Below, piece after piece: positions 2,151 through 5,918 of a DNA stretch of 5,918 nucleotides. The notes beneath the pieces are model-generated. The model was given only the letters and a program-made list of their open reading frames with translations, searched no databases and was not told the DNA's origin. The stretch lies in assembly GCA_027031765.1 (NCBI GenBank), contig JALVPN010000178.1, forward strand, positions 4,279 to 10,196, read 5' to 3'. This stretch comes from Promethearchaeota archaeon. Lineage in GTDB: Archaea > Asgardarchaeota > Thorarchaeia > Thorarchaeales > Thorarchaeaceae. A program made the position numbers and the translations under genes. The first letter of the stretch is position 1. The number at the start of each line of letters is the position of its first letter.

Positions 2151-3818
2151 CTATAGTGGCCAGATCTTCGGTGCTACCCGCGCGAACCTCTTCTGTCGCC
2201 TCTCAATAGCCTCTGGTGTCCACTTGTCCTCCTCAAGTAGCCACTGCGTTATTACTATGTGTGACTTCCTGTATTCCTTTTTCTTCTTGCGGAAGGGAGA
2301 GTTGCTGGCCATTCTGTTTAGCCTGAAGTCAAGTAGAGTGAGGTTCCCAAGCCTGTGGACATACTCTTCAATCTCATCTGGACTGAAGTACGGTAGCCAG
2401 CCCTCGTTAGGGTGCTGTGGAAGAATGTGTTCGAGATGCACGGTTGAAGAGTACTCGAACTCGCGACTCTTGTCAAAGTATGAGTTGAATGCTCGAAGAA
2501 CACACTTCGCAACGTTTACTTTTCTCAGATGAGCGGTTCTGACATACTGACCAAACTCCTTGTCACCTGGAGCAAGCTCTCTCAGCTTCTGGATGGCTTT
2601 CGCAATGGACACCCTCTCACTACGAAGGTCTCTTGCGAGAGAAGTGGCTGTCCGCTCAAATGCATTCGGTCTTCCATCGCCGAATATGAAATAGCGGACG
2701 ATGAACGACCGTGCAGCAGTCACCAGATTGCTGAACTCTTCTGAGTCCATTGGACACCGTGATGCCGCAGAGAGGAGGATCGGATAGACCTGAGTTACCC
2801 TCAGCGCCTTGATGTCCTGCAGTGCGCCGTACACAGGTGCTGACAGATCCTGTTTCTTGGGATGGGTCAGGATATGGTAGTTCAGGGACTCTGTATCCAG
2901 ACTCCGGACAACTTCCCGGAACGGGTCTTGTTTTTGCAGGTCTGTCTTGACTCCACGGTAGAAGTCCCTCTGTCTCAGATGACGAAACTTCGACATCCAG
3001 TAGTACCTGATGAACTGTTCCAGGCTTTTCTCGCTTTCCAGGCGTTCTTCCATACGAGTCCAGATATTCCTCACTTGGCTGAGCATGTCTTCCCTCTTTG
3101 CGAGTGAGAAGAGCAAGTTCTTGAGCAGTGCCGCGTTCGTAAGCGGAGTGCCACGGGCATTGATTGTTTCGAAAATCTGGAACGCGTCAGCATCCTCTGA
3201 TGCCTTGATCCTGATGAACCTGACCTTTCCACACAGGAACTGGAAGAACCGAGGAATCCACAGCGGATCCTCAGACGCGACCATATCCTTTATCTTGCTC
3301 CTGAAGAACTTGTAGGCATTGTACAAGCGCTTCTGCGACTCCGTACGGGCATTCGCCCTTATCTTCTGCAGATTGTGCTGGCCCTGCATTATGTACTGCT
3401 GAAAGAACTGATTATCGGTATCATTCAGTGTGAGGCGTGGCTCCTTGTTCCCGGAAGTATAGTCGACATGGAACAGCAACCCATCTAGATGCTGTGGCTG
3501 AAGATATTGTGGTGGCTTGTCAAGCGAGTCAAGGTAGTCATACATGGCCTTGATGAGGACTGAGAGCGTTGCAAGGCGCTGTTGGCCGTCTACTACTTCA
3601 AAGTACGTGTTCTGCGTCTCAGACCTGTGGATAATGACAATTGTTCCCAGAAAGTAGGAGTCGATCTTCAGATCAAAGGCATAGGTCAAGTCAGACCACA
3701 GGTCGTCTACTTGCTCTTCCCACGAGTACTTTCTCTGGTATTCCGAAACGCGGTACAAATCGTCTCCAGAGAAGACCTGACTAATGCTCAGCGTATCAGC
3801 TGTGAACCCTGTAGACAA
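2151..3818 (-). CDS. GmrSD-family (DUF262 + DUF1524/HNH) restriction endonuclease-like protein, 555 aa
   Basis: DUF262 motifs: YQRKYSWEEQ, YFLGTIV, EVVDGQQRLATL, IFETINARGTPL. DUF1524 HNH-type motifs: LEHILPQ, HRLGNLTLL..N..SNSPFRKKKKEY. TTG start at 3818; an in-frame TGA at 3849-3851 bounds any upstream extension. TAG stop follows the typical ending ...KIWPL. Confidence 0.93.
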   Translation of the reverse strand: MSTGFTADTLSISQVFSGDDLYRVSEYQRKYSWEEQVDDLWSDLTYAFDLKIDSYFLGTIVIIHRSETQNTYFEVVDGQQRLATLSVLIKAMYDYLDSLDKPPQYLQPQHLDGLLFHVDYTSGNKEPRLTLNDTDNQFFQQYIMQGQHNLQKIRANARTESQKRLYNAYKFFRSKIKDMVASEDPLWIPRFFQFLCGKVRFIRIKASEDADAFQIFETINARGTPLTNAALLKNLLFSLAKREDMLSQVRNIWTRMEERLESEKSLEQFIRYYWMSKFRHLRQRDFYRGVKTDLQKQDPFREVVRSLDTESLNYHILTHPKKQDLSAPVYGALQDIKALRVTQVYPILLSAASRCPMDSEEFSNLVTAARSFIVRYFIFGDGRPNAFERTATSLARDLRSERVSIAKAIQKLRELAPGDKEFGQYVRTAHLRKVNVAKCVLRAFNSYFDKSREFEYSSTVHLEHILPQHPNEGWLPYFSPDEIEEYVHRLGNLTLLDFRLNRMASNSPFRKKKKEYRKSHIVITQWLLEEDKWTPEAIERRQKRFARVAPKIWPL

Positions 3819-3830: not shown

Positions 3831-4459
3831 GCGTGCACGCTGGAAATATCACTATTATTTCTTGCTGGCATGTATTCCATCTGAACATTGGATCACCGCC
3901 GACATGTGCACATTACCTGCTTAGGAACTGCTAGCTCTAGCAACACACAAGTACGTGCCGTCCCATACACTCCTTAATCGTGGCGTCACAGATAGCATGC
4001 CTTTCCGATGCGAGCTGAGAGAGGACTCTTGGTAGGCCTTCAGGTCATCATAGACGACAAGTACTGCTGATGGAGTAGACTCGCTGAAATCCCTGTCCTG
4101 TAGACCAGAACCGGAACTCCATTGAGAGCCGGGGCCCTTCTTGCTCGCCGTGTACCAAATACTCAGCAAACGTACTGGTGCCGCCCGAGTACAGGGTCGT
4201 TTCCATATTATCTAGAAAACATGCCAGAGAGAAGAAGGTGCTTCGCATTCCTCATCCGCTTCATTTCTGAACTGTTCTCCATTTTGGAACATATCCCGGC
4301 ATCGACAGTGCATCCTGTGCCCGGTTTCTCGCCTCTGTCGCGGCGCAACAGTGCCGATTTCCCCGGCGGTGACTGGCGTCAATCAGTGAAGTGTCACAAG
4401 GTACGTACTGGGAGAACGGAGTGCCCATGGGTTCGTTGTCCGTCCAGTGCATACCGCCC

Positions 4460-4819
4460 CTACTCGGTGAGGAACAGTCGCAGGAGCACCAGCCTGATGA
4501 TTGCGAGATCCCTCTTGTCCACTTCCCCTATCCGCTTGGTGACCCTCTGAACAGAGATTGAACGCACCTAGTGACACAGTGCGAACGAGTCCTTGTGGAG
4601 TCCTGTCTTGAACCTACGAAGTGGGACAACAGTCCACCAGCTCCTGTTCTTGGTAGAGAGCGGGACGACGACAACAAGACCAAGAGTGTGCCCTGTGCCT
4701 ACTTCCTTTGTGGGCACCGAGATGATGACACAGGGGCGAATCCCCTTCTGTTCATGTCCGACAGTGGGATTCAAATCCGCCAGGACTATCTCGCCGGGGC
4801 AGAATGGGGAGGTGGTCAA
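4460..4819 (-). pseudogene. mazF: MazF/PemK-family endoribonuclease toxin interrupted by one in-frame TAG (4568-4570); 119 aa if read through
   Basis: The N-terminal 83 aa contain GEIVLADLNPTVGHEQKGIRPCVIIS and VVVVPLST, and end in KDSFALCH. After the TAG the same frame reads VRSISVQRVTKRIGEVDKRDLAIIRLVLLRLFLTE* (TAG 4460-4462), matching the family's Q-I/V-R-S/T-I-S..R...K.IG C-terminus. The family call is confident. Pseudogene versus read-through versus sequencing error is unresolved. Confidence 0.88.
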
Positions 4820-5634
4820 GGGCCGTCATTCTCCGTCTGTTGCCATCTGTTCTTCGTCGTCAAACGCCAAGTCATCGCCCTCCAGCGAAATCCCACGAAC
4901 CTTGAAAGAGGCGCCCTGAACGGGTTCTCATCGTTCATCAGGTAGATCTGAGTTATGGCCTCCTGTCCCCAGTCACGCAGCAGGTACTCCAGCTCACGCA
5001 CTTGCACTTGTGTCAGGCCAGTCCTGCTCCTCGCAATGGTCGCTGTGAGGAATACTACTGCAAACAGCATCCCTATGTTGAACATTATGACAAGTTGTGA
5101 GAGAATCTTGTTGTACTGGCCGGGCTCATCTCTGATGGCTAGAGCATCGGGGATCTCATCGCTTGCCAGCGGAACTAGCTGGCGCAACCTTGAACTGATC
5201 CTTTCACCGTCTATGTCCGGAGAGTCGAGCGGCCCAGGCCTCTGCAAGTGGGTAGCCAGCACCAGCAGTGGCAGGATATCCGTCACCTGACTGAGTGAGA
5301 AGGTGAAGTTGGCCATCACAACGGGCCCGTAAGACGACTTCAAGGAACTGAGGAGCTCCGAGTCCTCGGACAGTGTACGGACTGTGAGCTGTATCTTCGT
5401 GTAGTTCTCAAGAGCAAGGAGACGCGACCGCTCAGGGTCTGTTGTCAGCATCTCAAAGGACGTGAGAGTGGCCTCAAGTACAGCCTCCCGGAGGATGGGG
5501 CCTATCTTCTCGCCCGCAGCTACTCTCTGTATGCGCTTGTCCTCCTTGCCTTCAGGGGGGATGACACCTATCATTCCCAGACTAGGAACGCGCGGGGCTT
5601 CAATCATTTCCTTCACCAACCCCTCGCTCCGCAT
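4816..5634 (-). CDS. Hypothetical protein (272 aa) directly upstream of and overlapping mazF; candidate non-canonical antitoxin or partner
   Basis: Long ORF with helical-looking composition and one hydrophobic stretch (aa 177-201). Its TGA (4816-4818) overlaps the mazF TTG start (TTGA overlap). An alternative start at ATG 5607 has GGTGA (5613-5617) 5 nt upstream. No family recognised. Confidence 0.78.
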   Translation of the reverse strand: MRSEGLVKEMIEAPRVPSLGMIGVIPPEGKEDKRIQRVAAGEKIGPILREAVLEATLTSFEMLTTDPERSRLLALENYTKIQLTVRTLSEDSELLSSLKSSYGPVVMANFTFSLSQVTDILPLLVLATHLQRPGPLDSPDIDGERISSRLRQLVPLASDEIPDALAIRDEPGQYNKILSQLVIMFNIGMLFAVVFLTATIARSRTGLTQVQVRELEYLLRDWGQEAITQIYLMNDENPFRAPLSRFVGFRWRAMTWRLTTKNRWQQTENDGP

Positions 5635-5684
5635 ATCGGAGGGTCTATCATCACAGGACTCGGGAAACCGTATCTTGCCCGTCC

Positions 5685-5692
5685 TTTATAAT
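5685..5692 (-). promoter_or_regulatory. AT-rich TATA-like element upstream of the hypothetical-mazF pair
   Basis: The minus strand reads ATTATAAA, 50 nt upstream of the ATG at 5634, within otherwise GC-richer sequence. It resembles an archaeal TATA box. The plus strand reads TATAAT, so orientation is ambiguous. Confidence 0.35.
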
Positions 5693-5918
5693 GCTACGCC
5701 GGCCATCCATTCGTGCAGTGTCCTGTTCGCCCCAAGCCCTAGTGACGGCAGTCGCTCCGGTGCTGCTCACGGCTGGAGTCAACCTTCACGGTTCTCCGCC
5801 TCTCGACTCTGCATCGCTCTTTTCTGATGCCCTGCAGTGCTCCTACTACAGGATCTACAGTCATGCCCCGACCCTGCAGATACGATTGGGGAGGCCACCG
5901 CAACTCCCCACTCTTCCC

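Follow-up and report, generated by a model that had tools for sequence, protein, structure and literature searches.

Toxins of the MazF, PemK, Kid and EndoA group (PF02452) are type II toxin endoribonucleases, and solved MazF structures are available for comparison from Bacillus subtilis (4MDX/4ME7), Staphylococcus aureus (4MZM) and Escherichia coli (5CR2). Their catalytic residues are an arginine in an R-P motif (Arg25 in B. subtilis MazF, Arg29 in E. coli MazF) and a threonine or serine after strand 3 (Thr48 and Thr52 in known MazF proteins). In canonical MazEF and PemIK modules a small antitoxin of the AbrB/SpoVT or RHH type is encoded upstream of the toxin, and the acidic C-terminus of MazE occupies the MazF groove. 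The module described here likewise places a MazF gene behind a partner gene, but this partner has 272 codons and is not a small AbrB/SpoVT or RHH protein, and the toxin gene itself is interrupted by an in-frame TAG.

The window, i.e., the whole stretch of 5,918 nucleotides that was analysed, forms the final 5.9 kb of a contig of 10.2 kb. This contig belongs to a Thorarchaeota metagenome-assembled genome (MAG) of 2.95 Mb in 229 contigs, with 59% G+C and rated 95% complete. We consider it very likely that the interruption arose by an ordinary nonsense mutation of recent date and that the toxin-antitoxin-like module around it is decaying, and below we weigh this reading against an artefact, a read-through switch, a split toxin and an altered genetic code. 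The features on which the argument depends are collected in Table 1.

Table 1. Coordinates of the toxin gene, its partner and the adjoining defence-type gene, in positions of the window.
Feature	Position	Strand	Remarks
GmrSD-type nuclease (DUF262/DUF1524), intact, 555 codons, TAG end	2151..3818	minus	PADLOC HEC-06 (candidate defence family), full length, E 7.5e-127
Original terminal TAG of the toxin	4460..4462	minus	Same alignment end as relatives
35 codons 3' of the internal TAG, still in frame	4463..4567	minus	Invariant Arg86 and Arg92 kept; two strands and C-terminal helix
In-frame TAG, codon 84	4568..4570	minus	CAG/CAA, AAT/AAC or CGG in relatives; same letters in Logan contigs
MazF/PemK toxin, first 83 codons, TTG start	4571..4819	minus	PF02452; bears RPCVIIS (invariant Arg28) and VPLST loop
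Partner gene in the place of an antitoxin, 272 codons at present	4816..5634	minus	All-helical, one hydrophobic helix; last 34 codons apparently out of ancestral frame
Acidic C-terminal tail of the partner, putatively ancestral, in another frame	4826..4927	minus	TGA end 6 nt before toxin start

A preliminary description of this DNA had outlined the toxin reading frame, and every coordinate it gave (4460-4819 for the gene, 4570 for the in-frame TAG, and 4394-4396 for the TGA) was correct; past its terminal TAG the frame runs for 21 more codons to that TGA (minus-strand translation of 4391-4819). Residues 1-83 matched PF02452 (PemK_toxin) with an E-value of 9.8e-14 and 51.9 bits (cut-off 23.1), and the 35-codon part by itself gave a weak match to profile positions 78-108 (E 0.089). 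When the genome was searched in six frames, the match crossed the TAG, extending over profile positions 3-107 with an E-value of 1.8e-21 and 77.7 bits, so that the continuous match through the internal TAG is far beyond chance. This bears out the earlier view that the 35 codons after the stop are in frame and family-like. The RPCVIIS and VPLST motifs, which had been called intact, were both found in the toxin. Arg28 is invariant in the MazF alignment and pairs with the VRP motif of 4MDX, and the V-P-L-S-T loop contains Ser55 and Thr56, although HMMER aligns the loop with that of 4MDX only with a shift of a few residues. A profile of the clade also matched B. subtilis MazF/EndoA (4MDX) best, over its full length (E 2.6e-17). 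Nevertheless, the full barrel and the C-terminal helix do not lie in one open frame, as codon 84 is TAG. The window's MazF is a family member by descent, but a pseudogene.

Relatives were sought in 61 related genomes and then in 87 genomes of the class, and the latter yielded 19 MazF matches in 16 genomes at 33-50% identity. The protein database held the window's own 83-residue product and two metagenome relatives (43-48% identity). No relative of more than 52% identity was present in the protein database, the metagenome scan or the class genomes, and nothing in the class exceeded 50%. Across 17 relatives that are 33-52% identical, the codon at the site of the window's TAG is CAG in eight, AAT or AAC in seven, CAA in one and CGG in one; a stop occurs there in none of the 17, nor in any of 18 other matches in the class. 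Conservation of the TAG in divergent orthologues, which the preliminary description had proposed as a check, was thus looked for and not seen. Its account of the site as a conserved glutamine holds for nine of the 17 relatives and for B. subtilis MazF, which has Gln at the equivalent position, but not for the seven relatives with Asn or the one with Arg. One C-to-T transition from CAG explains the TAG, and the single change from CAG to TAG suggested at the outset is the simplest history, CAG being the commonest codon at the site.

The only other internal stop among the class matches was found in one relative, G011 (contig C51, approximately 2180-2190), where TGG has become TAG and the in-frame stop replaces the conserved Trp of an N-W-W-T-V-V motif. 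This amber codon is a separate, independent inactivation at another codon, in keeping with the repeated loss of toxin genes.

An AlphaFold2 model of the read-through protein, with X at the break, has seven strands and a C-terminal helix (pLDDT 83), and the strands at 86-89 and 93-100 and the helix at 102-118, all of which come after the TAG, are its most confident part. The 83-residue product retains the catalytic Arg28 and is missing nearly a third of the fold. Judging from the predicted model and the solved MazF structures, the truncated toxin is very probably unfolded and inactive.

The coding region after the stop also bears on the age of the lesion. Identity to the relatives is 0.44 before the TAG and 0.30 after it, compared with 0.43 and 0.34 among the relatives themselves, and the 35 codons 3' of the TAG show no extra decay. 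Since this region keeps its invariant arginines and the usual similarity to relatives, the lesion is probably young, though 35 intact codons would also fit continued selection.

The partner gene lies upstream of the toxin gene and the two overlap in TTGA. A domain search of the partner returned nothing in Pfam, NCBIfam or PADLOC; its homologues, of 240-275 residues, directly precede a MazF homologue in 13 or more loci of Thorarchaeota and share an invariant R-D-W motif. In 10 of 13 aligned intact relatives the partner ends in an acidic tail of the type G-I-I-P-D-x-E-D-x-E-I-V-E-E. The in-frame ending of the window's partner is rich in Arg and Trp and does not match the relatives (hhalign E 0.5), whereas the out-of-frame tail listed in Table 1 matches the relatives' tails at a collinear place (hhalign E 0.0027). 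Similarly, the family profile follows frame 0 to position 226 and resumes in another frame over positions 230-247, a short and weakly scoring stretch of tail that is not significant alone. From its collinearity, its composition and the position of its stop, we infer that the partner has been frameshifted and has lost its acidic tail, seemingly through the loss of one base close to the CCC at 4922-4924. In its present state the partner would be a pseudogene, or at least tail-less.

The arrangement of the module varies in some relatives. In G031 (L012) and G012 (L014) there is a gap of about 600 bases between the partner and MazF, or the partner is cut short just after the R-D-W motif, which suggests further decay of, or insertions in, the module.

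In the window, two lesions of different kinds lie less than 360 bases apart within a module of about 1.2 kb, and three neighbouring genes (the GmrSD-type gene, the open reading frame at 1105-1968 and an amidohydrolase) are intact. Such a distribution of damage points to a relaxation of selection on this module and not to random error. A paralogous pair is present in the same genome on contig C53 (2290-3671), with a MazF gene that has no stops and is 42% identical to that of the window, and an open partner of 313 codons whose shorter tail resembles that of G011. Due to this intact pair, the organism still has a member of the family.

Taking these observations together, the history that we favour would run as follows. 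A MazF/PemK-type endoribonuclease toxin would have been inactivated recently by a C-to-T change that turned CAG (Gln84) into TAG, such that translation would stop after 83 residues and the product would end before the final two beta-strands and the helix at the C-terminus. The partner in this two-gene Thorarchaeota module would have lost its acidic C-terminal tail by a one-base frameshift, and with both genes broken the module would decay, the intact pair on C53 remaining. The two lesions may have arisen in either order: the partner's tail may have been lost first and a toxin-null then selected, or the toxin may have been lost first and the partner then have drifted.

The alternative that survives best is that the lesions are an artefact of sequencing, consensus or binning, or come from a mixed population, and that the organism really has CAG and an unshifted partner. 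The MAG is fragmented, in 229 contigs, and the check that was made on this point used contigs only. The stretch was found in one public DNA run, X1, a hydrothermal vent metagenome, and two others, X2 and X3, had no coverage of it; no RNA run was listed as containing it. Compared with the window, the Logan contigs of X1 show zero differences over 4300-4771 and 4784-5700 at a depth of about 11.5, and both lesions are covered; X1 is probably the source of the MAG, so it is the assembly that is independent here and not the sample, and as contigs were compared, a minority CAG allele may still be present. Both of these Logan contigs stop within the toxin gene, so that the 12 bases of 4772-4783 have no cover. 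This break, which fits an artefact or a mixture, may be a branch in the assembly graph caused by a variant, or a place of thin cover. Nonetheless, a slip of one assembler is unlikely, because the second assembly has the same letters at both lesions, and random error would not concentrate in one 1.2-kb module beside intact genes. We therefore regard an artefact or a mixed population as improbable. Of the two causes that the preliminary description had joined as the simplest, recent inactivation of the toxin is supported and sequencing error is unlikely.

The use of TAG in this genome bears on the alternatives of read-through and of an altered code. In a mechanical count of open reading frames of at least 300 codons (n = 1374), 545 end in TAG (about 40%), 763 in TGA and 66 in TAA. 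Among the MazF relatives the terminal codon is TAG in 10 of 14, TAA in two and TGA in two, in all cases at the homologous C-terminus. Within the window, TAG also terminates the GmrSD-type gene, directly after its C-terminal domain, and the open reading frame at 1105-1968. TAG is an ordinary working terminator in this genome and in the MazF clade. A tRNA with the anticodon CUA was not found by ARAGORN, with or without introns, a result that falls short of proving absence as only about 20-23 tRNAs were assembled; the tRNA genes of this genome carry introns, and tRNA-Sec is present. Models of the pyrrolysine proteins PylS and PylD (TIGR02367, TIGR03911) gave nothing near their cut-offs in this genome rated 95% complete. 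The host was searched for pyrrolysine machinery or a suppressor tRNA(CUA), as had been recommended, and neither was found by these models or by ARAGORN.

The preliminary description had also raised the possibility of a toxin gated by read-through, in which the TAG would keep MazF off until amber suppression occurs, e.g., through a viral suppressor tRNA, whereupon the full-length toxin would abort the infection. On such a reading the partner's tail would not be needed. It is in favour of this proposal that the 35 codons beyond the stop have stayed intact, with their invariant residues, that the module adjoins the GmrSD-type defence gene, and that a second member of the family, G011, is also interrupted by an amber codon. 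A designed switch should, however, be conserved, and the TAG at this site occurs in one genome only, the amber of G011 lying elsewhere in the gene. Suppression would also extend very many host proteins, given the share of long open reading frames that end in TAG, and full suppression would add 22 residues to the toxin itself; decay, moreover, explains the frameshift of the partner more simply. With an unconserved TAG that is a common terminator, no tRNA(CUA) or pyrrolysine system found and a frameshifted partner, we hold read-through gating to be highly improbable. The chance seems just as slim that the window and G011 reflect a recurrent strategy and not decay, i.e., a conditional, virus-triggered amber switch with a dispensable antitoxin tail.

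The GmrSD-type gene has a G+C content of 50%, as opposed to 59% for the genome, and this suggests that the region is an acquired defence island. Between this gene and an amidohydrolase lies the open reading frame at 1105-1968 on the plus strand, of 287 codons and with a hydrophobic C-terminus, for which no match was obtained in Pfam, NCBIfam or PADLOC.

In a split toxin, translation would re-initiate at the GTG after the TAG, and pieces of 83 and 35 residues would together form an active nuclease. The context (CAC TAG GTG CGT) would allow this, since a 35-codon open reading frame opens at that GTG. On the other hand, the relatives read ATT, ATA, ATC, GTC or GTT at this codon, so that a Val codon is expected there anyway, no relative is split, and the partner is broken as well; a split toxin is thus exceedingly improbable. 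An altered code, by which TAG would be read as pyrrolysine or another amino acid, is already close to refuted, with PylS and PylD below cut-off, no tRNA(CUA) found, conserved genes that end in TAG at homologous ends, and pyrrolysine or amber recoding reported, among Asgard archaea, only for Sifarchaeia (Sun et al. 2021; PMC9723677), even though Sifarchaeia encode pyrrolysine while 21% of their genes end in TAG (PMC9723677), a rare or avoided TAG terminator is the usual correlate of such recoding and not a strict requirement for it, and the tRNA-Sec of the present genome means that TGA is recoded.

An ordinary nonsense mutation in a decaying module thus remains the preferred reading, and in itself the finding matters little, as it adds another toxin gene seen soon after its inactivation. 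It does have consequences for annotation, as the window's MazF should be entered as a pseudogene rather than an 83-residue protein. Where stop-codon recoding is claimed for Asgard archaea, it also offers a clean negative case, combining normal termination at TAG, no suppressor and a broken partner.

The partner family, a by-product, is more interesting than the dead toxin. In Thorarchaeota the regular companion of MazF is an undescribed helical protein of about 260 residues, mostly acidic-tailed when intact. Among 1.84 billion cluster representatives only 28 belong to the family, and 24 of these have E-values of 1e-10 or lower. For an intact member, the predicted fold (pLDDT 77) is an all-helical bundle in which one helix is long and hydrophobic and the tail is of low confidence, and no fold match with an E-value of 0.001 or lower, or a TM-score of at least 0.5, was obtained in the PDB (by Foldseek) or the ESM Atlas. 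A complex prediction for the MazF dimer of an intact relative and the C-terminal 60 residues of the partner scored 0.48 against 0.61 for a control, and so speaks neither for nor against binding. This helical family always stands before MazF in these loci, and its acidic tail recalls the C-terminus of MazE; it is on these grounds a candidate new antitoxin type. The conserved adjacency, in at least 13 loci, together with the acidic tail suggests that the partner may neutralise the toxin.

Compared with known systems, the locus resembles pyrrolysine and amber-suppression recoding (Methanosarcina, Acetohalobium, Sifarchaeia and TAG-recoded phages) in having an in-frame TAG inside a conserved coding region, and differs from these systems in that no machinery was detected, the TAG is unconserved and TAG is a frequent working terminator. 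With MazF it shares the invariant Arg in the RP motif, the P-L-S/T loop, a length of about 119 residues, a predicted topology in which strands precede a C-terminal helix, and the place of second gene in an operon whose gene ends overlap or abut. Unlike in known MazF modules, the toxin is broken at codon 84 and the partner is not MazE (AbrB), PemI or an RHH protein. The locus also resembles decaying chromosomal toxin-antitoxin cassettes, which likewise have a single-base nonsense lesion in a gene that is otherwise family-like and a second lesion in the partner; compared with known cassettes of this kind, the present one stands apart by its Asgard host, a member of the Thorarchaeota, and by its undescribed partner family.
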